From assembly GCA_036611895.1 (NCBI GenBank), contig GCA_036611895.1_4766.1: DNA of 64,000 nt, one strand, 5' to 3'. The notes under the pieces were generated by a model. That model made no database searches and was not told where the DNA came from. It saw only the letters and a list, made by a program, of their open reading frames with translations. The position numbers were made by a program, and so were the translations under genes. This document shows, in pieces, positions 20,211 through 61,600 of the stretch (the first letter of the stretch is position 1; each line of letters begins with the position of its first letter). This DNA is from a phage.

Positions 20211-20235
20211 AGTTGTTACCTCCAAGCAAAAAATA

Positions 20236-20262
20236 TGCCTCACTCCCGAAGGAATGAGGCTA
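20236..20262 (-). terminator. intrinsic terminator-like hairpin after RNAP II large-subunit gene
   Basis: gcctca...tgaggc stem preceded on plus strand by caaaaaat. Confidence 0.4.
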
Positions 20263-20267
20263 GTTTA

Positions 20268-21485
20268 TTAACTTAATGCATAGTCTGTTTCAAGAATGTC
20301 CTGCCAGAGGCTGTCATCCAGCTTACCAGCAGAGAACTCTTGTCCCAGTACCTGAGACAGGATGAAGCCTAGCAGGTCACTCTTAGCAATGTCAGACAGA
20401 ATCTGATTGTACTGACGACGTAGGTCATTACCGTAGTTAGGATGGCAACGGAAGCAGTCATGTACAGTCATTACAGGGAATGGTTTCTTAGGCATAGTGT
20501 CAATCATATCTGCTACTACCTGATGGTCTACATAAGCAATAGTGCATGGGTCAAGATAATCCAGGATTGATACGGATAGGAAGCCAGATTTCTCATAATG
20601 GCTCCACAGCTCCTGTACTTTCTCCAGATTGCCTGCAATCTCCCCATATTCTGATGGACCATCCTCACAGAGTTCTCGCACAGCTTCCACTAAGTCACGG
20701 TCGAAGTTACAACGACGCAGCATCTCACGCACCACCATCCCATCAATAGAGTGGGTGATGTTAGCAGAGAGCATACGAGTCTTCTCTTCTGTGCCCTGAA
20801 CCATACGAGTGATGTCGAATGGCTTACCTAAGAAGTTAACAGTCTGTACTTCAGGAATCATGACCTTAATGACAGCGTGGAAGTTGTCAGGCAGTACCCA
20901 TACGTAACGGTTGGCATCTGGATTACCACATTGCAGTAAGAACTTGTTAAGTGCCCAAGGACCACTAGCAACAGTTTCCATTACATTCTCAAAAGTCTTG
21001 AGACGAATACCTTCACCGAATACTTCTTTAGGCTTGGCTTCTGAGCCGTAGAATGCAGTCATAACTGCCTGCTTAGTGTCACTACGTTTAATACGAGATG
21101 CTTCACCAAGGATGTCCAGCATCTTGTGATAGATAACTGTATAGGCATCACGACGTAATGGCTTACCATTCTCTCCCATGTAGTTAACTACGTTACACAG
21201 TTCAGCAGCAGAACGGTCACCAGTCAGGCAAGCCAGTAACTGCAATCCGGATGATGTAGCATCCAGGGCTACGGCATAACCAATAGGCTTACCTGCTTTC
21301 ATATCTTTCCATGCATTTATACCTGCAAAGAACAGAGCAGAATCTTCAGCTTCATCTACCAGATTAAGCAGGTTAGCTTCGTTCTCATCGAACCAGGAGA
21401 TACGCTCATCCCATGTCTTTTTATCTAAGCCATAGTTATTAGCAATATCTACTTTCAGGTATTCACGAGCGGTTAACAGTTGCAT
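20268..21485 (-). CDS. phage RNA polymerase II, catalytic (C-terminal-type) subunit, T7-like single-subunit RNAP fold
   Basis: 405 aa. ALDATSSGLQ resembles T7 motif A (DGSCSGIQ); RSDTKQAVMTAFYGS resembles motif B with K-to-Y spacing of 8; MTVHDCF resembles motif C. RBS AAGGAA upstream. Confidence 0.85.
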   Translation of the reverse strand: MQLLTAREYLKVDIANNYGLDKKTWDERISWFDENEANLLNLVDEAEDSALFFAGINAWKDMKAGKPIGYAVALDATSSGLQLLACLTGDRSAAELCNVVNYMGENGKPLRRDAYTVIYHKMLDILGEASRIKRSDTKQAVMTAFYGSEAKPKEVFGEGIRLKTFENVMETVASGPWALNKFLLQCGNPDANRYVWVLPDNFHAVIKVMIPEVQTVNFLGKPFDITRMVQGTEEKTRMLSANITHSIDGMVVREMLRRCNFDRDLVEAVRELCEDGPSEYGEIAGNLEKVQELWSHYEKSGFLSVSILDYLDPCTIAYVDHQVVADMIDTMPKKPFPVMTVHDCFRCHPNYGNDLRRQYNQILSDIAKSDLLGFILSQVLGQEFSAGKLDDSLWQDILETDYALS

Positions 21486-21539
21486 TTTATGTTCCTTTTG
21501 CTTCTTGGCTCTCCACTATGGAGAGCCTGCTTATTGGAT

Positions 21540-21656
21540 TTATTTACGTTTACGTTTACGTTTGGCCTCTGCCTCACGTTTGAGAGCTTCGTTAATACGC
21601 TTTAACACTAGTTCTCTGTGAGCATAGAAGTCAGCTACTGCACGATGATTAATCAT
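21540..21656 (-). CDS. candidate 38-aa highly basic micro-protein (C-terminal KRKRKRK)
   Basis: Hand translation MINHRAVADFYAHRELVLKRINEALKREAEAKRKRKRK; ATG overlaps stop of upstream RNAP II small-subunit gene (ATGATTAA). Below ORF-track size cutoff. Confidence 0.3.
   Translation of the reverse strand: MINHRAVADFYAHRELVLKRINEALKREAEAKRKRKRK
21543..21563. repeat. (ACGTTT)3 perfect tandem hexamer repeat
   Basis: tttacgtttacgtttacgttt read directly; encodes the KRKRKR tail of the micro-ORF on the minus strand. Confidence 0.8.
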
Positions 21657-22467
21657 TGTTTACTAGCTCCTTATCAGCGAACTCCAGTACAGCTTTGTTG
21701 TAGCTGGTTCCCTGATAGTTGATGTGGTAGCCGCAGGCATATGTACGCCCACGTTTGTCATACTTGTGAGCCAGTGAGAAGTTATTACCTTCTTTGGTTA
21801 CTAACTCCATTACTTCCTTAGCTGTACGGCTGTACTTCTCAAAGGCTTTAACACGTTTCTCATAGTCCTGACGGGTTTCACCCTCTTTGGGTTTATCCAT
21901 GTTAGGACGAGAGTCTTTTACATAGTTAGCAACGTCCCAGTTAATACAGAGACGTTGGTTATTCATACGGTTGATGTGGTCAAGACAGACATCCATCTCA
22001 TGATGGTTCTTCTTGAGGATGATGCTACCTCTGCTTTCATAGTAACCAGTATCACGATTACACAGAACAGGCTTAGGAGCACTTACGATAGGCAATGGAT
22101 ACTGGAATGCTTCCAGTTCCATCTGAACATCTTCACTAATCTCATAGATAACACCGAACTTGTCGATGGTAGGGTCATAGTTGAAGCAGTCATTCTCTGC
22201 CATCTTATATAGGCAGTCAGCGATGTACTGAGCATCATCTGAGTGACTCATGAGAGAGCCAATCATAGTTTGGATGTCAGCACGTTTATGTAAGGCAATC
22301 TGCACCATTGCATCAATGAGCAGCTTATAATCAATTTCTAAATAGGCAGCGAATGCCTTAAAGTCAATTTCTTCGGAGTCCTCGAATTCCTTCCTCATGC
22401 GAGGGAGTAATTGATTCTTGTTGAAAAGGATTTCAAGTCGCTTCTGATGTTCAATAGATGAGTACAT
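21649..22467 (-). CDS. phage RNA polymerase II, N-terminal-type subunit
   Basis: 272 aa. KYDKRGRTYACGYHINYQG resembles the T7 RNAP DxRGR region; directly upstream of the catalytic subunit. Confidence 0.7.
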   Translation of the reverse strand: MYSSIEHQKRLEILFNKNQLLPRMRKEFEDSEEIDFKAFAAYLEIDYKLLIDAMVQIALHKRADIQTMIGSLMSHSDDAQYIADCLYKMAENDCFNYDPTIDKFGVIYEISEDVQMELEAFQYPLPIVSAPKPVLCNRDTGYYESRGSIILKKNHHEMDVCLDHINRMNNQRLCINWDVANYVKDSRPNMDKPKEGETRQDYEKRVKAFEKYSRTAKEVMELVTKEGNNFSLAHKYDKRGRTYACGYHINYQGTSYNKAVLEFADKELVNND

Positions 22468-22494
22468 CGCTTATTCTCCTAAATATGATTAATA

Positions 22495-22520
22495 ACCAAA
22501 AGCTGCGGAGCAGCTATTAC
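22495..22520 (-). promoter_or_regulatory. vRNAP-type hairpin promoter candidate (P-d), 45 nt upstream of RNAP II gene
   Basis: agctgc-gga-gcagct: 6-bp stem, GGA loop, same architecture as the three hairpins at 26.98-28.16 kb; preceded by aaccaaa. Confidence 0.45.
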
Positions 22521-22781
22521 CTAACGCTTAGTCCAAAAGGTAATACGAATACTGTTTTCATTACCGATGTAGTCGATGCGTACATGCAGACCATTACCAT
22601 TAAACTCATTACTTTTCTTCTGATAAGGCCAGACTAGGCTAGTCATAGGTATTTTGATGAAACCAGATATGTGGCCTAGCTTAGTACGACTCTTTAATTC
22701 ATTTTGTAATGCACAATAGATGTCGTGCCGTGTGAGTGCTCTGGCTCTGACTTGAGCAGACCATAATTCTTCATATGTCAT
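22521..22781 (-). CDS. hypothetical protein (86 aa)
   Basis: ORF track. Confidence 0.4.
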   Translation of the reverse strand: MTYEELWSAQVRARALTRHDIYCALQNELKSRTKLGHISGFIKIPMTSLVWPYQKKSNEFNGNGLHVRIDYIGNENSIRITFWTKR

Positions 22782-23161
22782 GAGAAGGTTCCCCAGTAGA
22801 TATAATCATCTCCCAGAATGGGCTTCCAGGCTTCGTCAAACATGACATTGCCAGTAGCATTGGCAAACATAGGAGCGATTTCTTCATCCTTATAGCCAGC
22901 TAATCCACAACCAATACGTGTTACTTTAAAGTCCCACTCTGGATGTGCTGCTGCATACAGGATAAATGCTTCAACGAATGTTTTAATGTCTTCTAAGGAC
23001 ATAGTCTTTATTGACTGGTCTTTGGTTGGAATTGCATAGCTGCAACCATAATGGCCTACGCCCATACCCCAACGAGCACCATGCTTTTTATATGCAACTT
23101 TCGCTGCACCAGCACCGTGACGACCTGCTAAATTACTTCCGAATACAAAGACTTCTTTCAC
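22778..23161 (-). CDS. hypothetical protein with glycine-rich nucleotide-binding-like N-terminus
   Basis: 127 aa. VFVFGSNLAGRHGAGAAKVA and IGCGLAGY motifs; family not assignable by eye. Confidence 0.45.
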   Translation of the reverse strand: MKEVFVFGSNLAGRHGAGAAKVAYKKHGARWGMGVGHYGCSYAIPTKDQSIKTMSLEDIKTFVEAFILYAAAHPEWDFKVTRIGCGLAGYKDEEIAPMFANATGNVMFDEAWKPILGDDYIYWGTFS

Positions 23162-23340
23162 ACTAACCCCCTTACTTCTTTATAGAATTTAACAGCGTCT
23201 TCCTGAGTTTCAGGCTTAACTTCATAAACATAGTCAAGAGCTTGTTCGTGGTCTTTCTGTTCCTTCTTGGTTCTACAATGACCACATTTACCATCCCATT
23301 GGGATACATGGCCTTTACCACATTTGCATTGTTTATTCAT
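23158..23340 (-). CDS. zinc-ribbon small protein (start adjusted)
   Basis: CKCGKGH...CGHC four-Cys motif; ATG overlaps stop of upstream gene. Confidence 0.4.
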   Translation of the reverse strand: MNKQCKCGKGHVSQWDGKCGHCRTKKEQKDHEQALDYVYEVKPETQEDAVKFYKEVRGLV

Positions 23341-23713
23341 TAGGATTCTCCACAAAATAGTTATATATAGCCTTTACTAGCTTCTCTTTAATAACCTCAC
23401 CATGACAAGGTTTTGGATAACAGAAGCACTGTAAGGCCAATCCTTTCTCGTCAATGGCTTTATTACCAAGACGATTAAGTTCATCCAGTACAACTGGATT
23501 CTTTCTCATGATTTGTTCATTAAGCCATACTCGATACTTGGCTATAACCTGTTCTCTCGAACCGTCTTTACCAATGACAAATGGATTGCCTAATGGTGAG
23601 CCACGCCCAATATACTCACCGGATTTACTGTGATGTTTATTAACAATAGTAATTGATCGTGCAGTTACACCCATTAGAGTATCTGTGTTATTACCTATTG
23701 AAATAGTCTTCAT
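23333..23713 (-). CDS. hypothetical protein (126 aa) with GNPF and CxC...CHG motifs
   Basis: RGSPLGNPF ... CFCYPKPCHG; resembles a DUF-type family common in phages, identity not verifiable here. Confidence 0.45.
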   Translation of the reverse strand: MKTISIGNNTDTLMGVTARSITIVNKHHSKSGEYIGRGSPLGNPFVIGKDGSREQVIAKYRVWLNEQIMRKNPVVLDELNRLGNKAIDEKGLALQCFCYPKPCHGEVIKEKLVKAIYNYFVENPNE

Positions 23714-24024
23714 GGTTTAAGTACCTGGAATGGGAACACAGGACGTTTACTACGCCACTGGTTCATAGCTAATTCACTGGTTTCAGAACCATCATGTAAG
23801 TCATAGATAAATGAGATTACATAGTCTGGTTCTTCCGGGAAGTTCTCTGTAGAGAATGGTAGCCCAGATTCCTTAAGGATAGGAACCAGTGGTGATTCAG
23901 CATTACAATAGAGGGTAAACTCTTCATTAAATGCCTGGCTTGTCTGAGATACATAATCAATATTACGCATCATCTTATCTACATCAGTAAATGTAGAATC
24001 ATGAACTACTAGAATAGTTTTCAT
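23710..24024 (-). CDS. hypothetical protein (104 aa)
   Basis: ORF track; 4-nt overlaps with neighbours. Confidence 0.45.
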   Translation of the reverse strand: MKTILVVHDSTFTDVDKMMRNIDYVSQTSQAFNEEFTLYCNAESPLVPILKESGLPFSTENFPEEPDYVISFIYDLHDGSETSELAMNQWRSKRPVFPFQVLKP

Positions 24025-24275
24025 ACCTTTCTTAATGTCCCATAGATGTTATTATCGACAATATTCAAATCACAAAAACCAATCTCTTCTTGTCTCCCAG
24101 AGGATACCCAGATATTGTTTTCTGTTAGCTTAGGCTTTTTAGAGAATCCTATTAGTGAGGTATTAGCACTCTTATATTGACGAGGTAGTAATGCTATATA
24201 CTTAACCCAGTGAGGCACTTGAATAGTATGCTTCATATATTCCACAGTCTTGCCTGTAGGATATGTAATAATCAT
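24021..24275 (-). CDS. hypothetical protein (84 aa)
   Basis: ORF track. Confidence 0.4.
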   Translation of the reverse strand: MIITYPTGKTVEYMKHTIQVPHWVKYIALLPRQYKSANTSLIGFSKKPKLTENNIWVSSGRQEEIGFCDLNIVDNNIYGTLRKV

Positions 24276-24632
24276 TTAGTACCTTACAACATATACGGGT
24301 TTATTAAGCCTATTCATGATATCAATCATGTGCTTGGTTCCTTTGGAATTACCATCCCAGAAGCACACAGCAGCATCTGCAAATTCACCCATTTCTTTAT
24401 TCCTACGGAATCCAGCAGATTTGCCATAGGTATCCCATTCAGCAGGGAATACATGTATCTGCATATTTGCAGATTTCCATAGATGGAAAGCTAATATATC
24501 TGCTCCACGAGCCATACCACATACCAATTCTGGGCATTCCGGTATATTCCCTGAATTTACTAACTTCTGTAATTCCTCAATCATACGATTGGTATTTACG
24601 AAGTCTCTCCCACCAGCTACAATCAGTCTCAT
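24276..24632 (-). CDS. SLOG/DprA-LOG-like Rossmann-fold protein
   Basis: 118 aa. RLIVAGGRDF ... GMARGADILAFHLW ... VCFWDGNSKGT resemble the Smf/DprA-LOG (SLOG) superfamily signature. Confidence 0.45.
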   Translation of the reverse strand: MRLIVAGGRDFVNTNRMIEELQKLVNSGNIPECPELVCGMARGADILAFHLWKSANMQIHVFPAEWDTYGKSAGFRRNKEMGEFADAAVCFWDGNSKGTKHMIDIMNRLNKPVYVVRY

Positions 24633-24850
24633 TTCTGATACCCCTGTATATAGTTAATACGGCGAATACGTTGAGTAGATGCCTTAACAGCTATCTGTTG
24701 ATTCTCTTCTTTATGCTGATTATTCAGGATCTTATCCCATTCCTTCTGGTTCCGTTGTTTCTGTAGAATACGACTACACTTCTTATGATTAGCAACTCCT
24801 CTTCCTTTATTGCAAATCGGGCAAATACCATAATTAGTGCTGAACAACAT
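24629..24850 (-). CDS. zinc-ribbon small protein
   Basis: CPICNK ... HKKC motif. Confidence 0.4.
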   Translation of the reverse strand: MLFSTNYGICPICNKGRGVANHKKCSRILQKQRNQKEWDKILNNQHKEENQQIAVKASTQRIRRINYIQGYQK

Positions 24851-24862
24851 TTTGTTTATTCC

Positions 24863-25096
24863 TTAGTAAGTATATTCAAGAGAGGTTTTACCATCTGTAT
24901 GACATACAGATACTTTACTATCTATGAAGTACATCTTGTTATTAATACGTACTTCATCAATAGAGAAATTGCTAAAAGGTTTAGAGTACACCTTACGAAC
25001 AATAGTTCTGTTAGTACCCTTTAGTTTAATTCGGGCATAACCTTTTCGGTCAACGAATATCTCATTACCTACAATTACATCACTGAGGTTGTTCAC
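24863..25096 (-). CDS. hypothetical protein (77 aa)
   Basis: ORF track. Confidence 0.4.
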   Translation of the reverse strand: MNNLSDVIVGNEIFVDRKGYARIKLKGTNRTIVRKVYSKPFSNFSIDEVRINNKMYFIDSKVSVCHTDGKTSLEYTY

Positions 25097-25397
25097 TTAG
25101 TGCCTCCAGTAGTATTTTACGAATAACATTTACATCAGATTCAGTACCAATTAAACCAACAGGTTTACCTGTACTATCTGTTACAAAGGATGCAATCCTT
25201 TCCATCTCTGCTGTAATTAACTTGTCACCACTAATAAGACGATTACGAAGGTAAGCTTCATAAGCTACCTCTACATCTTCTACCGTGGTTCTTTCATTAC
25301 GAGTGAATGGATTACTTAATGGGAAAGGTAAGTGGATACGTATATTCCGGTCAGCTATCTTAGCTGAATGGGGAAGTATACAAACAATTTCATTCAA
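25080..25397 (-). CDS. hypothetical protein (105 aa)
   Basis: ORF track. Confidence 0.4.
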   Translation of the reverse strand: MNEIVCILPHSAKIADRNIRIHLPFPLSNPFTRNERTTVEDVEVAYEAYLRNRLISGDKLITAEMERIASFVTDSTGKPVGLIGTESDVNVIRKILLEALSEQPQ

Positions 25398-25647
25398 GGT
25401 TATTTCTCCTATTTAAATACATATCTAACTATTCAAGAATAAAAAATAGAAGCCCTCCTAATGGAGGACTCCCAGTTCTACTAATGCACCATAGGTTAAT
25501 AGTGCAAACATGGTTATTGAGATAAGCCAGTTCATTTGAACGCATCCGGGTGATTGAAGGTAACAATCTTACGTACTGGTTCAGATGTCTTTTTCTTAGC
25601 AGCCAGACGCTCTTTCATCTTCTGTACGTCTTCTTTGGTTCCCATGA

Positions 25648-25830
25648 TTAATGACTTACGCATGATTTAGTACTCCACATAAAGTTAAAAGGTTTACTGT
25701 TACGTACAATTCTTACAACCATTTGATAGCCATTGAGTTGTACAACACCATAGTGTCGTTTCTGTACACCAGTGTGATACCTACGAAAGATACACTCTTC
25801 AATGGCATCTTCTATGTTAGTGAATATCAC
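25648..25830 (-). CDS. hypothetical protein (60 aa)
   Basis: ORF track. Confidence 0.35.
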   Translation of the reverse strand: MIFTNIEDAIEECIFRRYHTGVQKRHYGVVQLNGYQMVVRIVRNSKPFNFMWSTKSCVSH

Positions 25831-26045
25831 TGGTTCCTCTTTGCAAACTCTTCGGCTTCCTTAGCCCAGAGTTGCTTACGATCTTCTTTAGCTACGATGG
25901 AAGCAAACAGGCATTTAACGAATACAACTGGTAACTTACAAATAAGTACCAGCTTAGTAATTACCCACTTGGCTCCATTGAGAATGTAACCACGTAGGTG
26001 ATAAAGCACATAACAGAGTATTACAAACGCAATGAAGTCCAACAT
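25827..26045 (-). CDS. small membrane protein (72 aa)
   Basis: MLDFIAFVILCYVLYHL hydrophobic N-terminus. Confidence 0.4.
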   Translation of the reverse strand: MLDFIAFVILCYVLYHLRGYILNGAKWVITKLVLICKLPVVFVKCLFASIVAKEDRKQLWAKEAEEFAKRNQ

Positions 26046-26047
26046 AG

Positions 26048-26347
26048 TTAGTCCTTACAGTTAATGAATTGAGAATGTAATTCACCATTACAGATATTCA
26101 TACCATCTTCATAGTATGGCTCACCTAGTTCTTCATAGTAGGCTTTGTCATCAGGATGTGGTCTAACCACCAGGTCAAATGCAGGTAATTGACTGCCACC
26201 ATCAATCACGTTGAGTAAGCTGAATATAGCTCCCTCAATACGTTCAGTAGTATCTCCTCCATCTGGAGTATTTGCCCAGTAATGTACAATTTCTTTAGCA
26301 TTAAGTAGGAATTTATTCCTTACTTCTTCCTCAGTAAGTGCTCTCAT
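26048..26347 (-). CDS. acidic early protein (99 aa)
   Basis: ORF track; Asp/Glu-rich composition (DKAYYEELGEPYYEDG). Confidence 0.45.
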   Translation of the reverse strand: MRALTEEEVRNKFLLNAKEIVHYWANTPDGGDTTERIEGAIFSLLNVIDGGSQLPAFDLVVRPHPDDKAYYEELGEPYYEDGMNICNGELHSQFINCKD

Positions 26348-26444
26348 TTAGTACATATCCTCTTCTAATATAAATCTATATCTATCTGGTTACTGTTTCA
26401 GTACCCTTCGTCTAAAGATACTCAAAAAGTAGAAATAGCTTATC

Positions 26445-26475
26445 GTCTAGTTAAAAATAAAAGACTCCCCGAAGG
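26445..26475 (-). terminator. intrinsic terminator after first early gene of promoter P-c
   Basis: gactccc-cgaa-gggagtc hairpin preceded on plus strand by aaaaataaaa. Confidence 0.45.
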
Positions 26476-26490
26476 GAGTCTATTGGTTGA

Positions 26491-26871
26491 TTAGAAAGTC
26501 AGTTTACGAGCATATTTATTCTCGTCTGCTGGGATGTCAGCAGCCTCTGCTTTCACACGACGAAGTTGAACTTGCAGGTTAATGATACCTTCTTCACCTG
26601 GTTCCAGGTTCTGAGCATATGCGATTAACTGTTCCAGCAAGTCGTTCTGTGCACAACGCATAGCACGGAAGTCAGCATTGCTGCTATTGGTAGGCAGCGG
26701 TTCCTGAGTATCCAGTGGAATACCAGTAGGCAGTGAGATGAATTTCTCATCATCAGAGCCTTCATTAGCCACATAACCAATGTTCAGCCAGAACTGAGCT
26801 TTTGGTTTGTCAGTTTTAGCAGTAGAAGCAGTATCGTTAGACTGACCGAAAGTGAATTTTTGAATAGACAT
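26491..26871 (-). CDS. early protein (126 aa; start at internal ATG with GGAGAG RBS)
   Basis: ORF track 26491..26964; annotated first ATG lies only about 19 nt from promoter hairpin centre with no RBS, internal Met (MSIQKFTF) has one. Confidence 0.5.
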
Positions 26872-26969
26872 TTTGTACTCTCCAGATTTATGTGATTTAC
26901 GGGTGAACTCGTCGGTGAGAACACCCAAACAAAAGGATAAAAGTTCAATGATTAGTGGATGCATTTACA

Positions 26970-27000
26970 TCATCCATAAGACGCGGAGCGTCTTGGTTTT
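26970..27000 (-). promoter_or_regulatory. vRNAP-type hairpin early promoter (P-c)
   Basis: tccataa-gacgc-gga-gcgtc-ttggtttt: 5-7 bp stem with GGA loop; conserved flanks shared with P-b. Confidence 0.6.
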
Positions 27001-27003
27001 GGC

Positions 27004-27273
27004 TTACCAATACATAGCTGCTGTGCCTTCTTCGGCAAAGAACTCATCTAAGCTGTTTTGATTTTCTTTACGGAACTGACGACGCAGCTTACGGATTTGT
27101 TTCTTGGTAGGTTTAGCAGGGAAACTGTAGTCAACAACCAGAGGCATTCTGGTTTCTTCACATACTTCAGAGAACCATAACTGCCACTCTGCTGCAGCAG
27201 GGATGTGTTGCTGCTTACCAAAAACCGGTTGCTTAGTACCACCAACATAGAACAGGTCAGTATTAAATTGCAT
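27004..27273 (-). CDS. early protein (89 aa)
   Basis: ORF track; RBS CAGGAG upstream; about 44 nt downstream of P-b hairpin. Confidence 0.5.
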   Translation of the reverse strand: MQFNTDLFYVGGTKQPVFGKQQHIPAAAEWQLWFSEVCEETRMPLVVDYSFPAKPTKKQIRKLRRQFRKENQNSLDEFFAEEGTAAMYW

Positions 27274-27299
27274 GAGTAAACTCCTGAATTAAAATGATA

Positions 27300-27325
27300 T
27301 CCAATAGAAGCGGAGCTTCTTGGTT
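27300..27325 (-). promoter_or_regulatory. vRNAP-type hairpin early promoter (P-b)
   Basis: tccaata-gaagc-gga-gcttc-ttggtttt; matches the N4 early promoter hairpin as I recall it (GAAGCGGAGCTTC). Confidence 0.6.
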
Positions 27326-27326
27326 T

Positions 27327-27698
27327 TTAAGGAATGTAGGACAACCAGGTTAATAGTTCTGCTTTAGCTTTCTGATACTTACTGTCTACAGTTTCATCTG
27401 AGATATCTATGTCTGATTCTCCGTAATGATGGATGTCAGACTGATATTGCTCTTGCTGGCGAATGGCTTCCTCGAATCTATTTAATGCTTCAATAGGTTC
27501 TTGTTTTTGCCATACCCATAAAGCACCTGCAAGAGGTAGATTGTCATCTTTGTACCAACGTGGTCCTATTCCAGATACACACTTTAATTTACTATCTTCA
27601 GTAAGAATGAATCTTCCTGGTGAGTGAAATTTTCCTACTAGTTCTGTTCCTACAGGAACATCTTTAGTTAATGATTTTACGCAAATGTACTTAGCCAT
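27327..27698 (-). CDS. early protein (123 aa)
   Basis: ORF track. Confidence 0.5.
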   Translation of the reverse strand: MAKYICVKSLTKDVPVGTELVGKFHSPGRFILTEDSKLKCVSGIGPRWYKDDNLPLAGALWVWQKQEPIEALNRFEEAIRQQEQYQSDIHHYGESDIDISDETVDSKYQKAKAELLTWLSYIP

Positions 27699-27785
27699 TA
27701 TCTATCTCCAAAGTAGATAGTTATCTACTTTTGACTATCTATCTAATGTTCAAAACAGGAGACTCCGAAGAGTCTCCTTGATGAC

Positions 27786-28109
27786 TTAGTCTTTAGTCAG
27801 GATGTCAATTACTTTGGAATATTCTGCGTTATAGATCCGAGCGTTCTCTGAATCCTTGCAGAATTCCTCGATACTTTTCTTACGCAGAGTCTCAGTCATA
27901 GCTGTTTCCTCTGCCAGTTTATTAACAAAGGTATGCATTTCTAATTTAGTACGAATGGCTTGTTTCTCTGCCATAGTACTAACATATGAATTAAGCATAC
28001 CTACTGCTTTAGTTGCTGTGCTGAATGTATCTGCAACAGTAGTAGCAGCTGAGTTAACAGTACCAAGTAAAGTTCCTGCGGTCATACGTACAGTAGCTTG
28101 AGTAGTCAT
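27786..28109 (-). CDS. early protein (107 aa), first gene downstream of P-a
   Basis: ORF track; about 49 nt downstream of P-a hairpin centre. Confidence 0.5.
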   Translation of the reverse strand: MTTQATVRMTAGTLLGTVNSAATTVADTFSTATKAVGMLNSYVSTMAEKQAIRTKLEMHTFVNKLAEETAMTETLRKKSIEEFCKDSENARIYNAEYSKVIDILTKD

Positions 28110-28145
28110 GATGATAGCTCCAATAGTTGATGATAGGACGACATG

Positions 28146-28168
28146 TCCATAACATGCGGAGCATGTGT
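28146..28168 (-). promoter_or_regulatory. vRNAP-type hairpin early promoter (P-a)
   Basis: tccataa-catgc-gga-gcatg: same stem/GGA-loop architecture and tccataa flank. Confidence 0.55.
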
Positions 28169-28343
28169 AACGTGTAAGGTGGGGTAGGGTAGTGGCTACA
28201 CCGTCAACATACCGGGGGGGCTAGTTGAGTGTAAGGGTGTAGCCCCAGCCACACCACTATGGCTGTACATAGCTATCACAATTTTGACATGCAAAAATAT
28301 TATAGGCACTATCTCTATAAGCAGATAACTTTGAGGTACTAAC

Positions 28344-28472
28344 ATGAAAGATGGATGGGGTAACTACAATCCTACAGACCCTGAGAACTGGCTTCACTTT
28401 ATTGCATGGGCTTGCGCTGTAGGATTCATAAGTATTGTGCTCTTATCACTGGTTCTATCTTATCTGTAAATA
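28344..28472 (+). CDS. candidate 42-aa single-pass membrane micro-protein on the opposite strand
   Basis: MKDGWGNYNPTDPENWLHFIAWACAVGFISIVLLSLVLSYL; GAGGT 6 nt upstream of ATG; TTGACA hexamer about 55 nt upstream; hairpin follows stop. Confidence 0.3.
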
Positions 28473-28473
28473 C

Positions 28474-28497
28474 TATGGGGGATAGCTATTTATCCCC
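28474..28497. terminator. hairpin (possible bidirectional terminator) between micro-ORF and paralog array
   Basis: ggggata-gctatt-tatcccc stem-loop read in sequence. Confidence 0.35.
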
Positions 28498-28667
28498 TAT
28501 TCATCATAGCGTTTAATACCTAAAACCTTGTATAGCTTACCCTTTACAAGCAATGGTCCACCTACTTCTACGAAAGCTAGGCTGTGTACTATCACTGGTT
28601 CAAGTAAGCCTTTTACTGTTATATACCACATATTAATCCTTATAAGCAGTTAAATAGGAGGAAGTGG

Positions 28668-52606: not shown

Positions 52607-55600
52607 TTGAACAGGAATCATGCTATGTCAACATTTGACCGTCTGGCAGGTTTCGCAGACAGCATCACTACTGCTAAGCAAGTCGATGTCTCTACTGCAA
52701 CCTCTCGGAAACAAGCTGAACAAGGGCAAAGCCCTTTCCAATTAACTCCTCAGAATGCCTACCAATTACAGGCAGGACGTGCCGGTGACTTAGGTGCTGG
52801 TGCATTTGAACCAGGTTCTATTCAGGCAGATTTTACTAATGCCTCCCCCCTTGAAATCGTAAACAAGTATGGCAATGAGCAAGGAATGGACATTCTCAAT
52901 GCTCGTGTCAATGCAGCTAATTCTGTTCGTCGTGATTTAACTAAGAGTCGTACTTATGGTGAAGCACTTGGTGATACCCTTTCTGGTGTTGGTCTTGGTG
53001 TTGCTAATACCCTTGGGGGCATTGCTGCTCTTGGCACAGGTTTGGTCAATGATAATGCCGGGGCAACCATTGCTTCCAGTCTTGACTGGTTGAATAAAGG
53101 TGTACACAACCTACAGTCTGATGCACTGAATGCTCGCCGTAATGTAGTACAGAACCAGAACGTAATATCTGCACAGGAAAATGAGAAACAGTATAAGCAG
53201 GATATTGCTGAAGGAGAAAGTGAACTCGTTGCTTCCTTGTCTCGCATTGGTCGTGATGCTTACGATTCTGTCGCTAACACTTTGTCTAATGGCATGGCTG
53301 CTACAGATGGTCTGGCTGAGGGTGTTGGTTCACTGTTTACTGGTGGTCCACTTATCCGTGGTGTATCTGCACTAGGTAAGGTAATGGTAGGTGGTGATAA
53401 AGCTGTTAAGGGCATTACCTTAGCTGCTGAATTAGGTTCACGTCCTGCACGAATTGCACAGTCTGCTGGTCGTGTTGCTGCACCTGCTATAGCAATTGGT
53501 GGTATGGAAGCTGGTGGTGCATACCAACAGACTGCTAATGAAATTATGGAAATGCCATTCAGTGAACTGGCTGCTAAATCTCCTGTATACCAACAGCATA
53601 TTAAAGACGGTTTATCTACTGAAGAAGCACGACGTCAGACTGCATCTGAAACAGGTATCACTGCTGCTGGTTTAACTGCTCCAGTTGCTGCTCTTACTGC
53701 TCCACTGGTATCCAAGTTTGAACTTAATCCACTTAAGGTAGGTTCACTGGCTGGTGCTGGTTCTAACATGCTGCGAGAGACTGTAGAAGAAGGTATTCAG
53801 TCTGGTACAAGTCAGTTTGCACAGAACAAGGCAATCCAAGGTAATGTTGATGCATCTCGTGACATCCTCAAAGGTGTAGGCGAACAAACTGGTCTTGGTG
53901 CATTGTATGGCTTTGGTTCTGCTGGAGTTGCTCAAGCTCCTGGTGCAACTGTTAAGGCTGCTGGTGCTGCCGTTGGTCCTGCTGTACGTACTACCCTGGC
54001 TGGTGCTTCTCTGGCTGGTAAGGCATTAGCAAAAGTAGCTTCTCCTATTACTAACATCCTGGTTCAACGTGGGGAAGAAGTTGCTAAGCGTAATGAACAA
54101 GCATCCCCTGTATCTGATGCTACGGTTAACGCTGCTGCACAGGAAGCTACTGCTCAGGCAGAACAAGCACAAGCAACTGTACAGGAAGCAGTAGATGCAA
54201 TGGATATTTCTCCAGAAGAGAAAGCTGCTGCTACTCAGTATGCTGCTGACTTAACTCAGGTAATGAAGTTTGATCCAGTAGAACTGGAACAAGCTAGTCC
54301 AGTAGTCCGTGAAGCTGTTTCTGGTTCCACTAACCGTGTTGAAGCTATTCAGAAGATGGCTGACCTGGTTAATACTGCTGAAGACCCTAACGTTCAAATG
54401 GAAGCTGCAATCCAGATGTATGACAACATTATGTCTATGGATAGCTTCATTAACCGTGATCCAGGTGCATTAGCTAATCTGGAACAGGGTTCTCCTGCTG
54501 CTAATATTGTTGATCAGTTCTCCGGTCTGATGGCTAATGTACAGAATACACCGAAGGTACTCCGTGCATTCCGTGCCATTCATTCCATGATTCAGGAACA
54601 GGCAGAAGCAGGTAAACTGAAAGCTACTGAAGAAGCTAACCAAGCCCAAGCAAACAACATTGCTATGGCTGCTGATATGTCTCCAGAAGTGCTGGACGCA
54701 GATTCAGTGAACATGGTTCTGAAACATGCAAGTGAAGGTAAGATTACATTGGGGAATCGTCAGCGTGCTGCCCTGCAATCTGCTGCTGCTCTATTGCAAG
54801 GAGCACGGGAATTTGACGCTAAAGCAGAAGAACTAGGCTTACGTCCTCAAGACATTGTTAGTAAACAGATTAAAACCGACGAATCTCGTTCTAATGAAGG
54901 TCAGTACTCTGCGTTGCAACATGCTAAACGCATTCGTTCTGCGTACAACTCTGGTAACTTCGATTTGGCTTCCGCTTATCTCGACGACTTTATGAAGTTC
55001 GCCCAGCACATGCAGAATAAGGTCGGAGCGTTGAATGAGCATCTGATTTCTGGGAATGCGGATAAGAATAAGTCTGTCCATTATCAGGCTCTTACTCCCT
55101 CGCGTGAATGGGTACGTAGTCGTACTGGCCTCGGTGTCAATCCGTATGATACCAAGTCTGTTAAGTTTGCCCAACAAGTAGGACTGGAAGCCAAGACCGT
55201 AGCTGATATTGCTAACGCACTTGCTACGGCTTACCCGGAGCTTAATGTTTCTCATGTGAAAGTTACCCCATTGGATTCACGTCTGGACAAGCCTGCTGCC
55301 CAGGTAGTTAAAGAGTTCCGTCAGGGCAATCTTGATGCTGCTCAATCCCAACAGACCAATGAACCAGTGAATCAGGTTGATGAAACTCCTGTTACAAAAC
55401 AGGAACCAGTTACCCCTACTGTACAGACTAAACCCTCTGTTAGTGAAGCTGTTAAAACAGAACCCACTATTAAAGAGTCTAAACCACAGGCTGTAAAAGA
55501 ACCTGAGAATCAGTCTGAATCTTCTATCCCAGCTGGGCCTGAAATGAAGACTGCTGAGTTCACCGGTAAACAGCAAGCCTCATATATGCAGTTAGGTCAG

Positions 55601-58600
55601 TACTTTGCTTACAACGGTAAAGACTTTATTGCTATTGGCAAAGATATAGAAGGCACTCGTGCTGTTCCTGTTACTGGTGGTAAGACTATTGTTATTCCAG
55701 GAGAAACTACTGTTACAGGTAAAAGTGACGTACTGACTTCCTTTAAGTATGGGGAAACAAATGTACCTTACGTTATGACTCCAGAAGGTCGAATCTTTAG
55801 TCTACGTAGTACTCGTGAGGTATGGGCTACCCCATCTCAGGCTCGTACAGATTTCCTTAACTATGTTCGGAATACATTCCCTCAACCGGAATCTGCTCCG
55901 GTTAATGTAGAGGAAACAAAGTCTGAATCCGAAAAGCCAAATGATACTACCCTTACTAATGAGGATACCATCGAGCAGTCTACTGAATCTGAAAGGGATG
56001 CTTATGTAAAAGAGAATACTATTTCTCAAGAAACTCTTAATAAGTATGGTGACCGTAGGGAGAGTCCATGGCTCTTTGCTGATGGTACTGTTGTTGGTTC
56101 CAATGGTGACCATATCAGTCTGTCCGATGTATTTGGTCATGATGGGTATCGTGACATGTCTCTGGATACTGGTGCTGTGCGTTCTACCTTCTACAAGGCC
56201 AAGTCTGGCCATCCTGAGGATGTGGACTTCGTGTCGCTGCAGCTGTTTGATAATCAGAAGCTGACTGCTGAACAATTCAATACCGTTCAATCTTTCGTTG
56301 AAGCCAATAATGCACATATTCTGGTTGGTGTAGATACATCTGGGCTTAATACCAATAACGTTGAGGAAGATGAAGTATCACTGGCTCAACTGAAAGCAGA
56401 CCATACCGTGGGCGGTGAACCTCTATCTCAAATGGAAACAGTGTTCCCTGTCTATAACAACGAAAAGACACCGAACCAGTTCCTTAAAGCATTTTCTCTA
56501 CCAGAAGAACCTAAGTCTCGTACCATTGGTTCTGAATCTCCTTTAACTGATGTTAAGAAAGCACTGTCTTCTGCTGCTCGTTTTGAAGCATTCACTCAAA
56601 AAGAAAATAACGCTCTCACAAGTGATGTGATTAAGCGTTATCAGGACTTGTTTGATTTTGGTGAAACTCTGAAGACTACTCTGTCTGACCGTCTGGCTAA
56701 GTTCCTTGCTAATAAGAATGTTGGTAAACGTTTTGCAGAGGGTACTGAGGCTAACCGTTGGGTAGGTGGCAAACTGCTTAATATCGTAGAGAAAGACGGT
56801 GACACCTTTAAGTTCAATGACCAGTTGTTGGAGACTGCTGTACTTGCTGGTCTGCAATGGCGACTGACTGCTACACAGAATGCTGCCATTAAAGACATGA
56901 AAGACGTAGCTGCTATTACTGGTGTAGAAGCATCTCTGCTACCAGAAGGCATTTTGGCTGACTTCGAAAATGCTCAGACATTGGTTGAAGCTACTAACTC
57001 ACTGGCTCAAAAGATTGAATCCTATTGGGGTTTAAATCGTAATCCTAATGCACCACTGGGTTATACCAAGGGTATCCCAATGGCAATGGCTACAGAGATT
57101 CTGTCTTCTCTCATTGAAATGGGTGAAGTTAAAGAGTCCATGCTGGATGTATCTGAGATTGACCCAGAATCTAACAAGACTGTTGGTCTGTATACCATTG
57201 AGAAGTTAGACGATAACGATGCCATTAATAAATTCCCTACTGCTATTGAAGAAGCTGTTCTCGTAGAACCAGTAGAGAAACTGTACCTGGGTGATGATAT
57301 TCCTTCCGTGGCTCAAACTCAGTTACGTAATCCGGCTGTTAAGAATACCCCAGAACAGAAAGCTGCTCTTAAAGCAGAACAGGCTACTGAGTTTCGTGTA
57401 CATATGCCGATGGTTAACTTCTATGAAGCAATGGGTCGTGACAACATTCTGGAATTGATGGGTGCTGGTGCTCTTAATCCTGAGCTACTGAATGTGAATA
57501 CTGCTAAATCTCTGGAAGGTAAAAACCTGTCCGTGTCCATGGCATATGATTCCTTGTTTGGTGTAATCAATCAGATTAAGGAACAGGAGAATGGGCTGGA
57601 TACACCTATTCACTATGGTTACAACATGACCCGTGTAGGTCGTATGCAGATGCTTGGTAAGAACAATCCACAGTCCAGTAAGCTGGTACGTGAAGCAATT
57701 CTACCAACCTTCTCTACCATCGACTTGAGTAATGAAAACAGCCAAACGTTCTCTGACTTCCAGTTAGGTCTGGCTCAGGCATTGGGCATCAAAGTTCATA
57801 AAATGTCTCGCGAAGTTATGTCAGATGAACTGACTAAAGCTCTGGAAGGTAAACTGAAACCTGCCGTCGATATGATGGTTGAGTTTGATAAGTCTGGGCA
57901 CTTACCTACTAATGCAGTGGATATTCTGAAGACTTCCTTGGGGAATGATAAATCATTCGTAGCTCTTATGGCTCTTATGGAATATGCCCGTTACCTGAAT
58001 AGTGATGACCGTGCTAACTTTAATACCCCACTGTACGTTGAAGCTGATGGTGTAACCAACGGACCAATCAACGCAATGGTACTGATGACGGGTGGTAAGT
58101 TCACTTCAGACTGGATTAAGAATACTGCTAAGGGTGGTTTGTTCTTCGGTAAAGCTGGTAAGACCATGAATGAGCATCATTCGCATGAGGACAGCGTTGA
58201 CCTGTATGAAGCATCCACTAATAGTCTGCAACAGGCACTGAATGAATTGCGTAATACTTATCGTAACAACGTTCCTGTTACGAACCAGATGAAGCATCTT
58301 CAGAAGTTAATGGACCTGTTCATTAAAGACTTCAATCTTAATGAAGATGGTACTCTGGACCTGAAACGTGGTATCGCTAAAAACCCACTGACTATTACCA
58401 TCTATGGTTCTGGTGCTCGTGGTATTGCAGGCAAGATGGTTAGTGCAATTACTGATACCATCTACGAACGCTTCAGCGACGTTCTGCAAGCCCGTGCTGC
58501 TGACCCTAGCATTTCTCCAGCTATGGCTATGTTTGGTAAAGAGGCTGCATCTGAAGCTGATGCTCAGGCTATGCTGGATACCTTCCTTACTTCTATGGAA

Positions 58601-61600
58601 GCATTAACTGGTAATGTTCCAGTTATGCGTAAAGGTGAACTGTCTATTCAACAAGTAGAGGGTGCTCTGTCTGGTAAGTTAGACCCCCAGAAGTTTACCG
58701 TATCTGGCAATGCTCTGAAGAACCTGCAAGAGAATATGCTTCACCTGTTCGTTGAACCAATGCGTACTGGTATCCGAAATACTGTTGGTGAAGGGTTGAT
58801 GCACTCTACTGAGAACTTACAGAAGGCTACCCAGATTCAATCACTGGTATTGCAGGATATGTTCCAACAAGCTGTACAGGCTAAGCTGGCAGAAAAAGAA
58901 AAAGACCCAACATGGAAGAAAGGTGATTTCTTAACACAGAAAGAACTGAATGAAATCCAGAATAGCTTAGCTCCGCTGGCTCCAATGATTGAGACTGGTT
59001 CTCAAACATTCTACATTGCTGGTAGTGAGAATACTGATGTTGCTAACCAAGTACTGGCTACCAACTTAGATGACCGTATGCGTGTGCCAATGAGCATCTA
59101 TGCTCCTTCACAGGCAGGTGTTGCAGGTATTCCATTTATGACCATCGGTACTGGTGATGGCATGATGATGCAGACTCTTTCTACTATGAAAGGTGCTCCG
59201 AAGAATACCCTGAAAATCTTTGATGGTATGAACATTGGCATTAATGACATCTCTTATGCAAGCCGTAAAGCTAATGAGGCTGTATATACTTCCTGGCAGG
59301 GTAATCCTATTAAGAATGTATATGACTCCTTTGCTAAGTTCATGAAGAACGTAGACTTCAGCAAACTGTCTGATGAAACCAAACAGGCTATCGCTAAGTC
59401 TGCTCTGGAGTATGACCAACGTGAAGGTGCTACTGATGACCTGTTACGCGTTGGTGCTGAACAGATTGAACGTAATCTGCGTAACATTGCTTTGGGTGTA
59501 GATATTCGTCACAAGGTAATGGACCAGGTACAGGTCACTGTTGACCAGATGGCTGCTGTAGGTGCTCCTTATGTGAACAACGGTAAAATCTCTCTGGAAG
59601 GTTTAACTGTAGACCAGCAAGTAGCTAAGCTGAATGAACTGTTTGATGCTGAATTAAATAAGCGTCGTGATGCAGTACGTGCTGCTAAAGCAGAGTCAAC
59701 GAAGGTAGAACCAGTGAAAGAAGTGCCAGTGGTTGAAGTGCCTGCTATGGAGAAGGTTGGTCGTGTACTGAAGTCTGGTGTACGCCTGCTGTCTAATACT
59801 GCCATTACTAAGCTGGCTAAAGAGATGTCTCCTGAACAACAAGCAGTATTGAAAGAAATACAGAAATCCCTTGCTGCTAAAGACTACAAGGTTGTTTACG
59901 GTACACCTTCTCAACTGGATGCCTACGCTATTGAGAAGAATATTACTCGCCCAGCACCAGAAGATATTGAAGCTGCTGAAGCAGGCAATGCATACGGTTG
60001 GACTAACTTTGAAGATAAGACCATCTACTTAGTTACCCCTTCCTTAGAGACTCTGGTTCATGAATTGGTACATGCTTCTACTTTTGAATCTGTACTGGCT
60101 CACTATGAGGGTACTCCTAACGAAGCAGTCCAGAATATTGAAGACCTGATGAACCAGTTCCGTGCTCTGGATGTTAAGGACGAATCTCCGGCAGTACGTG
60201 AAGCATATGCTGATGCACTCAATACCATTAATGGTCACTTGTCTAACGGCTTTATTGAACCAGCAATGGCTAAAGCTGCTGCACTGAATGAGTACATGGC
60301 CTGGGGTTTAACCAACCGTGAATTGATTGGCAAGCAGAAGAAAACCACTGCACTTAAAACTATGGTTCAGGCTGTATATGAAGCAATCAAACGTCTGGTA
60401 TTCGGACGTAAGAAAGCTCCGGCTAATGCAGATGATATGTTCTCTGGCTTACTGTTTAACTCTGCTGTAGTAATGCGTGGACAAGCTCCTACTGCTGCTG
60501 TAGCCAAAGACACTACCTTGTTCCATAACAAAGCATACGGTGACAATACTCGTCTGGAAGAGCTAGGGAAAACCTTCGATAAGCTGATTACTGACTACAT
60601 TGGTTCAGAACCAGTACAACAAGTAATTCGTAAAGGTAAGTTCTCTGATGCAGTAGTGAATGCAACTAAAGTAACTCGCGATGTTCAGGCTCATGGCTTC
60701 ACCATGAATATGCAGGAACAGCGTCTCTTTACTAACATTGTTGCTGCACTAGCTACCGAGGCTACTATTAACCCAGCTGCCATGGCTCGTGCACAGGAAT
60801 ACTACACGCATGTTACTAAGAACCTGACTGTTGAAGCGTTCATGGCTGACTCTGATAGTACTAACCCTGCTGACCGTTACTATGCACAGCAGAAGTTCGA
60901 TACCATTATGGGTGCTAACAACATTGAGTTTGATGCACAGGGTCGTTCTTCCTTACTGCCTACCTTTGTTGGTCTGGCAATGGTAAGTGAAGAGGTACGT
61001 AAGGTACTGGCTGATATTCCTGTTATGAAAGCAGATAAGAAATCAGGCAATACTGTTGATGCAATGCTGACTAACATCGGTACTGCTGCAATGGCTAGTC
61101 TGAATGCTCGTGTAGCAGGTGATACTAAAGCTACTAACGTACAGGAAGGTATGGATGCACTGGCTCAGACAATCATGCAGACCAGCCTTAATGCAGAGTC
61201 TTTCTATGATTCCGTTGCTACTCCTACCGGTAATGCTATTGACCGTGCTAACCAGTATCTGGTGGATTCTATTGATGCACTGTCTACTCGTACTTTGGAA
61301 GGTGCTCGTGAAGTTGCAGCTAATACCAAGAACCCACTGGTTAAAGGTGCTGCTCATGCTGCACAACTGATAGCTGCTATTGCTACAGAGAAGAATGGTT
61401 CAATCGTAGCTGAAGGTGTTATGGCTGCAATGAACCAGGGTAAAGTATGGCAACCTTTTCATGACCTGGTTAATGACATAATCGGTCGTACTAAGAGCAA
61501 TGCTTCCGTATATGATTTGATTAAAGCAGTACGTGCACAGGTACAAGCAGACCGTCAACAGTTCCGTGAACATTTGCCTACCACTATCGCATCTAAGTTC

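Follow-up and report, generated by a model that had tools for sequence, protein, structure and literature searches.

Organization of the early region

The DNA analyzed here (the window, a stretch of 64,000 nt) is from a G7C-like (Gamaleyavirus) relative of coliphage N4. Homology with N4 nucleotide 1 starts at approximately position 28256 of the window. No tRNA genes were found in the window. The following genes and terminator-like hairpins were located:

52625..63862, plus strand: virion RNA polymerase (vRNAP) gene, 67% identity to N4 gp50; predicted reader of the four hairpins described below
27786..28109, minus strand: gp1 homolog, 107 aa, 66% identity to N4 gp1
27752..27777, minus strand: terminator-like hairpin 3' of the gp1 homolog, GGAGACTC-TTCG-GAGTCTCC followed by TGTTTT
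27327..27698, minus strand: accessory ORF, 123 aa, no N4 homolog within the first 12 kb of the N4 genome
27004..27273, minus strand: accessory ORF, Pfam DUF7279, 89 aa, served by the additional predicted promoter 27301..27320
26491..26964, minus strand: gp2 homolog, 157 aa, 67% identity to N4 gp2 (the RNAPII cofactor)
26462..26481, minus strand: strong intrinsic-terminator-like hairpin directly 3' of the gp2 homolog
21649..22467, minus strand: RNAPII small subunit, 272 aa, 65% identity to N4 gp15
20268..21485, minus strand: RNAPII large subunit, 405 aa, 67% identity to N4 gp16, PF00940 match
20237..20260, minus strand: terminator-like hairpin directly 3' of the gp16 homolog

The hairpins behind the gp2 and gp16 homologs were obtained from a terminator scan; the one at 27752..27777 is absent from the scan list and was read by eye from the sequence. 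Hairpin 20237..20260 would close a predicted early unit begun at 22497. An octamer, AAAGTAGA, and its palindrome were noted after the gp1 terminator and tried as a possible middle-promoter element; the enrichment was just weak (8 vs 3.3 expected).

Four hairpins had been reported in this region in a preliminary description, and all of them are indeed perfect, with a GGA loop on the plus strand:

22501-22515, loop on the plus strand: AGCTGC-gga-GCAGCT, 6 bp
26978-26994, loop on the plus strand: AAGACGC-gga-GCGTCTT, 7 bp
27306-27320, loop on the plus strand: AGAAGC-gga-GCTTCT, 6 bp
28152-28166, loop on the plus strand: ACATGC-gga-GCATGT, 6 bp

On the plus (template) strand a longer motif is common to the four sites, consisting of CC, 4 nt, a 5-bp stem ending in GC, the GGA loop and the complementary arm. 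Searching with the full-motif pattern (CC-N4-N3GC-GRA-GCN3' with complementary arms) revealed four occurrences in the window, compared to 0.006 expected from composition, all on the plus strand and within 5.7 kb. This analytic estimate was complemented by 200 mononucleotide shuffles, which contained the full motif one time in total. The heptamer GCGGAGC alone is mildly enriched (5 vs 2.1 expected). Its fifth copy (58970, minus strand) was rejected, as the stem there has 3 bp only and lies inside the vRNAP ORF.

When the template-strand hairpins were folded as single-stranded DNA, three of the four performed better than shuffled sequences (z -2.9 to -3.4); the 28.15-kb site folds less well against its shuffles (z -1.4). 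The predicted minimum-energy or centroid DNA fold is the hairpin at every site. The 5' flank tccataa, attributed earlier to three clustered sites, is exact in two of them, while site 27306 reads tccaata; the 3' flank ttggtttt was correctly assigned to two sites. A spacing of 44-50 nt to the gene starts was not confirmed: measured from loop center to ATG, the distances are 50, 40, 22 and 41 nt for sites 28152, 27306, 26978 and 22501, respectively.

Promoter determinants and the cognate polymerase

Promoters of the N4 vRNAP are defined by -11G, -10G, -8G, +1C, a C:G closing pair and a purine at -1 (PMC4496689). All published determinants of N4 P1-P3 are present at the four sites. The template-strand stems are perfect over 6, 7, 6 and 6 bp and carry 3-nt loops, as expected for a 5-7 bp stem with a 3-nt loop. 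The required heptamer, centered at -11, has a G-R-A loop closed by C:G (-10G, -11 purine, -12A, -9C:-13G; PMC4496689), and GCGGAGC occurs at each site. Likewise, -8G is found in every 5' arm (GCTGC, GACGC, GAAGC, CATGC), positions +1/+2 are CC and -1 is A on the template strand throughout, and +1C sits 11 nt from the loop center. When 41 unique promoters predicted in 18 genomes were compared on the RNA-like strand, all 41 carried G at +2 and 40 carried it at +1; both positions lie outside the search pattern. The sites are located approximately 0.1, 0.9, 1.3 and 5.7 kb from the N4-nucleotide-1 homology point, thus at the left end (the first-injected ~10% of the genome), and all are oriented with the early genes, aiming at the gp1, gp2 and gp15 homologs.

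The vRNAP of the window (52625-63862) keeps the promoter-reading residues K114, R119, W129, D901 and R904 (mini-vRNAP numbering). K267 of the beta-intercalating hairpin is replaced by N, which was counted against the promoter explanation. Taken together, the determinants, the gp1/gp2/gp15/gp16 context, compensatory changes in the stems (see below) and the polymerase residues back the initial claim of vRNAP-type promoters, and we consider it highly probable that the RNA polymerase packaged in the virion of this G7C-like N4 relative uses the four hairpins as early promoters. No published paper with mapped transcription starts for any Gamaleyavirus was found; hairpin extrusion, start sites and promoter activity are what we infer by homology.

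The hairpin upstream of the RNAPII genes

The RNAPII-proximal hairpin had been put forward as a regulatory input beyond the three promoters of N4. A scan of the complete N4 genome revealed exactly three hairpins of this type (90-102, 557-573 and 4546-4562), preceding gp1, gp2 and gp15. The last one lies 41 nt before gp15, and its stem, AGCTGC-gga-GCAGCT, is identical to that of the 22.5-kb site, so the proposal is not supported. As N4 possesses just these three hairpins, the RNAPII-proximal hairpin is very probably the ortholog of N4 P3 and not an extra element. N4 P3 itself very probably corresponds to hairpin 4546-4562, an assignment made by elimination in the genome scan and from secondary statements in the literature, according to which N4 vRNAP transcribes gp1, gp2, gp15 and gp16, and P1-P3 are confined to the leftmost 10% or ~8 kb of the genome. 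In one 2026 paper the count changes from three promoters in the introduction to four (P1-P4) in the discussion. The hairpin that N4 does not have is 27306-27320, before the accessory DUF7279 ORF.

The gp15-proximal hairpin is present in 20/20 relatives with at least 65% gp15 identity (Enquatrovirinae loci). In its stem, both bases have changed in a compensatory manner at two pairs (7 cells); base pairing is retained in 93.9% of cells, the core pairs do not vary, and none of 500 shuffles reached the covariation score. No GC-YYY-GC-core hairpin adjoins the gp15-type gene in distant Schitoviridae (gp15 identity ≤55%), and the conservation claim is therefore restricted to Enquatrovirinae; a few of these distant phages have such a hairpin 0.8-3 kb upstream. 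Hairpin 27306-27320, in turn, is missing from N4 and many Gamaleyaviruses. Hence, the check on conservation suggested earlier turned out well for the 22.5-kb hairpin, which is among the most conserved sites, but the variable site sits within the cluster of three. In the 17 relatives with a fully covered early region, the number of promoters per genome is 3 to 4.

In view of the same-stem hairpin in N4, which has only two others genome-wide, of the presence of the hairpin in every relative at or above 65% gp15 identity, and of 27306-27320 being the site that N4 lacks instead, it is extremely unlikely that the RNAPII-proximal hairpin represents a fourth promoter peculiar to this lineage, even though recent papers still speak of three promoters and the window does hold four hairpins. 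Its position would also allow a different function. Hairpin 22501-22515 begins 6 nt past the stop codon of an 86-aa ORF, its RNA-like strand reads AGCUGCUCCGCAGCU and then UUUGGUUAUU, and it was also caught by the crude terminator scan; it could thus be a rho-independent terminator of the upstream operon, or a dual terminator/promoter, and not primarily a promoter. We regard this as very unlikely. The T-rich tail is not conserved, several relatives that retain the gp15-proximal hairpin having no T-tract (relatives read GCAGCTTAAGGAAG, GCACCTTAAGGAAC and GCTGCTTGTGGTAA), whereas the loop, the GC closing pairs and the GG at fixed spacing, none of which a terminator needs, are invariant. Moreover, 22501-22515 has a short stem of low stability (about -5.4 kcal/mol as DNA), whereas real terminators nearby have 8-12 pairs; the combination of a stable GC-rich stem and a conserved U-tract that marks intrinsic terminators is not found here. 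The three other sites share the motif, and on the minus strand none of them has five T within the next eight bases.

A further alternative takes LUZ7 as its model, where ONT-cappable-seq identified middle promoters with GC-rich hairpins resembling the early ones (PMC9163698): the 22.5-kb hairpin might be read by RNAPII, leading to autoregulatory middle transcription. However, this phage is a close relative of N4, whose middle promoters are described as AT-rich in the N4 review, and N4 RNAPII uses two consensus motifs and starts at T according to the LUZ7 paper (PMC9163698). The 22.5-kb site matches the gp1 and gp2 sites in every determinant, leaving a next to negligible probability for reading by RNAPII.

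Predicted early transcription and comparison with known systems

For promoter function of the four hairpins, the steps of entry, extrusion and initiation can be carried over from N4. The left genome end would enter the cell first, and host gyrase would supercoil the entered DNA, such that inverted repeats extrude as small hairpins. A sheared G:A pair would stabilize the GCGGAGC mini-hairpin core of the template-strand hairpin, which E. coli SSB would not disrupt. Initiation by vRNAP at promoters of this class would withstand rifampicin, require gyrase and SSB in the cell, and require a single-stranded template in vitro. The injected vRNAP would then read -11G, -10G, -8G and +1C and initiate with GTP 11 nt from the loop center, with predicted starts at the minus-strand G of 28148, 27302, 26975 and 22497:

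28147..28166, minus strand: predicted vRNAP early promoter, putative N4 P1 ortholog; hairpin ACATGC-GGA-GCATGT on the plus strand, leftward transcription; predicted start G at 28148 (minus strand), 39-nt leader to the gp1 homolog; ~97 nt from the start of N4-nucleotide-1 homology, as is N4 P1
27301..27320, minus strand: additional predicted vRNAP-type promoter, AGAAGC-GGA-GCTTCT, without counterpart at this position in N4; predicted start 27302, 29-nt leader to the 89-aa DUF7279 ORF
26974..26994, minus strand: predicted vRNAP early promoter, positional ortholog of N4 P2, AAGACGC-GGA-GCGTCTT; predicted start 26975, 11-nt leader to the gp2 homolog
22496..22515, minus strand: predicted vRNAP early promoter before the RNAPII genes, AGCTGC-GGA-GCAGCT, very probably the ortholog of N4 hairpin 4546-4562; predicted start 22497, 30-nt leader with an AGGAG ribosome-binding site

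Three of these would be orthologs of N4 P1 (gp1), P2 (gp2) and P3 (gp15-gp16), each driving a short unit up to a terminator-like hairpin, and the three units would jointly yield the four proteins said to be required for middle transcription (gp1, gp2, gp15, gp16). With a vRNAP promoter directly before the RNAPII genes, this machinery would thus be wired to the vRNAP promoter by promoter. Promoter 27306-27320 would be an added copy that places the accessory DUF7279 ORF under immediate-early control.

The class of hairpin promoters is already known and the RNAPII-proximal site is an ordinary member, present in N4 itself. The gain is mostly one of annotation: four confidently predicted early promoters with their predicted starts, plus a set of three or four short early units. 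A plausible misconception is also set right, as N4 and its close relatives already have a vRNAP promoter directly before the RNAPII genes. The sole mildly new point is comparative, namely that closely related phages differ in their number of vRNAP promoters, as additional copies come with, or precede, accessory ORFs. The extra promoter 27306-27320 recurs in near-identical form in other Gamaleyaviruses ahead of different ORFs, and the same 40-nt segment precedes other genes in SP5M, U1G and Moonfish. In several relatives, unrelated small ORFs or a homing endonuclease are inserted directly behind the P3-type promoter. It is conceivable, albeit rather doubtful, that hairpin promoters double as recombination joints of a swappable immediate-early slot, into which accessory genes are captured as promoter-plus-ORF cassettes. 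If so, accessory genes, possibly with counter-defence functions, would be expressed by the injected polymerase ahead of all enzymes of the host or made by the phage, and the supply of about four vRNAP molecules in each virion might set an upper limit to the number of promoters.

Papers on N4-like phages of roseobacters, Vibrio, Achromobacter and Pectobacterium contained no promoter coordinates useful for comparison. In LUZ7, nine early starts were mapped by ONT-cappable-seq (PMC9163698). As predicted here, the injected LUZ7 vRNAP reads hairpin promoters with a 3-nt loop, starts at G and has more than three promoters per genome; however, initiation takes place 13-14 nt from the hairpin center, stems have at least 4 bp and the core sequence is another one. 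A scan of the entire region upstream of the LUZ7 RNAPII gene for GC-YYY-GC-core hairpins with stems of 5 bp or more found none. The promoter core GCGGAGC is an instance of the extraordinarily stable DNA mini-hairpin motif d(GCGAAGC)/d(GCGNAGC), and a sheared G:A pair between -10G and -12A is described for the N4 promoter loop (PMC4496689). In contrast to the promoters, this mini-hairpin is a physico-chemical motif, which here lies inside a longer stem with polymerase-specific contacts.

Parallels are also found in Klebsiella phage KP8, for which four hairpin promoters, P1-P4, were predicted, one of them before the gp15 homolog (Morozova et al. 2019, PMC6950046); the predicted positions are matched by locus L024 in our comparison of relatives. 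As in the phage studied here, the four are predictions only and have a GC-TCC-GC core followed by GG; in both phages one precedes a gp1-like ORF, two fall between gp1 and gp2, and the remaining one lies before the gp15 homolog. KP8 differs by an ORF of ~80 aa between P4 and the polymerase gene and by its stems (GCAGC/GCTGC). With N4 P1-P3 the sites share the template-strand hairpin with a 5-7 bp stem and 3-nt GRA loop, the GCGRAGC heptamer centered at -11, -8G, +1C, the purine at -1, and the location before gp1, gp2 and gp15 within the first-entering ~8% of the genome. A fourth copy, absent from N4, precedes an accessory ORF in the interval from the gp1 to the gp2 homolog; the P1 loop of this phage is GGA and not GAA as in N4, the stems differ by compensated changes, and the sites are predicted from sequence.

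Hairpins of the virion polymerase promoter type

The region at 22.3-28.3 kb is 88-95% identical to G7C-like N4 relatives (genus Gamaleyavirus) across ~60-78% of its length, phage nithesis being the best match. The genes of the hairpin region are encoded on the minus strand. ORFs were assigned to N4 genes by tblastn against N4 (identities 66-76%), and the subunits of RNAPII, the second phage polymerase, also by PHROG and Pfam searches.

Hairpins and genes of the window
28152-28166, plus strand, hairpin
27306-27320, plus strand, hairpin
26978-26994, plus strand, hairpin
22501-22515, plus strand, hairpin
27786-28109, minus strand, gp1 homolog
26491-26964, minus strand, gp2 homolog
22778-23161, minus strand, gp14 homolog
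21649-22467, minus strand, gp15 homolog (RNAPII subunit)
20268-21485, minus strand, gp16 homolog (RNAPII subunit)
52625-63862, plus strand, virion RNA polymerase (vRNAP) gene, 67% identical to N4 gp50

A perfect-stem scan around the GGA loop recovered all four hairpins of the preliminary description where it had placed them (stems of 6, 7, 6 and 6 bp, in order of increasing coordinate). The 64 kb contain just two further hairpins with a GGA loop and a stem of 5 bp or more, and both lack the GC closing pairs. Common to the four sites is a plus-strand motif made up of CC and four A/T bases, a 5-bp arm with GC at its end, the GGA loop and the complementary arm. This full motif occurs four times in the window, on a single strand and within 5.7 kb, where 0.006 would be expected from base composition; 200 shuffles gave one match in total. 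The bare heptamer GCGGAGC is weakly enriched only. In single-stranded DNA folding the hairpin was the predicted structure at all four sites. A tccataa flank, described as common to the three clustered hairpins, is exact at two of them and inexact at the third, and the proposed spacing of 44-50 nt to the gene starts did not hold, the distance from loop centre to ATG being 50, 40, 22 and 41 nt from 28152-28166 to 22501-22515.

Promoters of vRNAP are conserved from -17 to +1 and carry a GC-rich heptamer centred at -11 between inverted repeats. Extrusion and stability require a C:G closing pair together with the loop 5'G and 3'A; -11A/G, -10G, -8G and +1C are specifically recognised; the duplex/single-strand junction lies between -5 and -4, four bases serve as a ruler, and -1 is a purine (PMC4496689). 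With the loop centre numbered -11, each of the four window sites has -12A, -11G, -10G, -9C and -8G, together with A, a purine, at -1 and CC at +1/+2, which places the predicted starts at the minus-strand G of 28148, 27302, 26975 and 22497. The vRNAP of the window keeps the promoter-contacting residues of the N4 structures (K114, R119, W129, D901, R904) and also K849, K850, K437 and R440; the sole difference among the residues checked is K267 to N. Assignment of the four hairpins, as predicted promoters, to the vRNAP class is hence well supported, in agreement with the preliminary description. K267 (mini-vRNAP numbering) belongs to the beta-intercalating hairpin, in which the neighbouring K268 is conserved, as are all base-reading residues.

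Homology to N4 nucleotide 1 begins at window ~28245-28256, the point at which SP5M and St11Ph5, as linear records, start too. The physical left genome end therefore lies inside the window, so that the assembly is either permuted or joined through the terminal repeat.

Counterparts in N4

The complete N4 genome (NC_008720), scanned for the same kind of hairpin, contains exactly three.

Hairpins of the vRNAP-promoter kind in N4
90-102, GTTGC-gaa-GCAAC, before gp1
557-573, AAGAAGC-gga-GCTTCTT, before gp2
4546-4562, AAGCTGC-gga-GCAGCTT, 41 nt before gp15

The single further heptamer of N4 has a 3-bp stem and falls inside a late gene. It has been stated that gp1, gp2, gp15 and gp16 of N4 are transcribed by vRNAP. 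By elimination, the gp15-proximal hairpin, located at 6.5% of the N4 genome, is the early promoter P3. Since 22501-22515 and N4 4546-4562 agree in stem sequence and in placement relative to gp15, the window site is orthologous to a known N4 promoter and not an addition to the N4 set. The preliminary description had held it to be an extra input to RNAPII beyond the promoters of N4; this claim to novelty is unsupported because N4 itself carries the promoter.

By position, 28152-28166 corresponds to N4 P1, lying ~97 nt from where homology to N4 nucleotide 1 begins. The site at 26978-26994 corresponds to N4 P2, as judged from its place before the gp2 homolog and the same ~10-nt leader. Unlike these, 27306-27320 has no N4 counterpart; it precedes an 89-aa DUF7279 ORF, and a search of the initial 12 kb of N4 gave no counterpart of this ORF.

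The predicted gp2 mRNA leader (26964-26975, minus strand) comprises 11 nt, GGAUGAUGUAA, followed by AUG, and a two-codon mini-ORF (AUG AUG UAA) within it abuts the start codon. The N4 gp2 leader (576-588) reads GGAUGAAGUAAUG. The arrangement points to initiation of translation that is near-leaderless or coupled. Between gp15 and gp16, N4 has a 47-nt gap only, whereas the window has a small ORF of ~38 codons (21541-21655) overlapping the gp15 stop codon and, 3' of it and just before gp16, a 9-bp hairpin without T-run, GGCTCTCCA-TAG-TGGAGAGCC (21507-21527).

Conservation upstream of gp15 and early terminator-like hairpins

Conservation was analysed at 20 loci with a gp15 homolog at least 65% identical to that of the window, covering Gamaleyaviruses, N4-type phages and KP8-type Klebsiella phages. 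The preliminary description had proposed a search for the 22.5-kb hairpin in relatives, and a hairpin with a GC-TCC-GC core was found upstream of gp15 at 20/20 loci, at 31-44 nt, or at 249-534 nt where an extra ORF is inserted between. The stem occurs in compensated variants (GCTGC/GCAGC, GGTGC/GCACC, GCAGC/GCTGC), with double changes at two pairs (7 cells) and 93.9% of cells paired; its covariation score was matched by 0/500 shuffles. Loop, closing pairs, -8G and GG at +1/+2 are invariant. The 18 genomes compared yielded 41 unique predicted promoters; 40 of these have G at +1 and every one has G at +2, both positions lying outside the search pattern. In more distant Schitoviridae (gp15 at most 55% identical) no such hairpin adjoins the gene, and conservation is therefore claimed for the subfamily Enquatrovirinae.

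The 22.5-kb hairpin might instead be a terminator. A T-rich tail on its RNA-like strand would fit, but is not kept among the relatives retaining the hairpin; and although the hairpin begins 6 nt after a stop codon and is included in the terminator scan, its stem is weak and its invariant features are requirements of vRNAP, not of a terminator. Genuine terminator-like hairpins, with stems of 8-12 pairs and T-runs, are found after the gp1, gp2 and gp16 homologs.

Terminator-like hairpins of the early region
27777-27752, terminator-like hairpin after the gp1 homolog, read directly from the sequence
26481-26462, terminator-like hairpin after the gp2 homolog
25474-25447, terminator between the left hairpin cluster and the RNAPII genes
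20260-20237, terminator-like hairpin after the gp16 homolog

Because the terminators at 26481-26462 and 25474-25447 separate the RNAPII genes from the left cluster, these genes need their own vRNAP promoter. The terminators are consistent with short early units: gp1; DUF7279 ORF and gp2; gp2; gp15, small ORF and gp16.

At 19000-29000, terminator-like hairpins are enriched (25 versus 5.6) and sigma-70-like promoter matches strongly depleted (5 versus 27.9 +/- 5.2 in shuffles). A perfect palindrome, AAAGTAGATA-AC-TATCTACTTT (27710-27731), lies between the gp1 terminator and a 123-aa ORF. The window has 8 copies of the octamer AAAGTAGA (3.3 expected), one of them after the gp2 terminator (26426-26433). 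Palindrome and octamer may be operator or middle-promoter elements.

Accessory ORFs and known early promoters

The novelty is modest and comparative only: promoter number is 3 or 4 among the 17 relatives with a fully covered early region, and the copies that vary go with accessory ORFs. SP5M, U1G and Moonfish share the 40-nt segment with the extra promoter (27292-27331) at 97-100% identity, but with different genes downstream (sites compared: SP5M 893-907, nithesis 2447-2463). The complete cassette of promoter and DUF7279 ORF was found in Jgk1 only (79% identity), and in nithesis the 5' flank of the 27306-27320-type site is joined to the gp2 promoter stem. The promoters thus look like points at which accessory-gene cassettes are joined by recombination.

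Seven of the relatives examined carry an ORF between the gp15-proximal (P3-type) hairpin and gp15.

Inserted ORFs (locus of relative, position)
L005, 6723-6977
L093 (SP5M), 5721-5975
L009, 6748-6978
L010, 6745-6981
L024, 5992-6237
L011, 6719-6910
L016, 6501-6977

Five encode ~80-aa proteins that, judged by eye, appear mutually related; of the others, one encodes 63 aa and one a 158-aa protein resembling an HNH/AP2 homing endonuclease. Predicted leaders measure ~10 nt in 5/7 and ~30-36 nt in L011 and L016.

None of the deposited Gamaleyavirus records examined annotates hairpin promoters, that of SP5M having terminators only. Both the type of element and its arrangement are already known. In a 2026 J Bacteriol paper, the introduction speaks of three early promoters, the discussion of "four early promoters (P1-P4)". 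Hairpin early promoters of LUZ7 have been mapped experimentally, with nine early starts (PMC9163698). For KP8, putative promoters were placed at 89-110 (P1), 962-983 (P2), 1225-1246 (P3) and 5965-5984 (P4), P3 and P4 before gp2-like and gp15-like genes (PMC6950046), and our scan reproduced these positions at locus L024.
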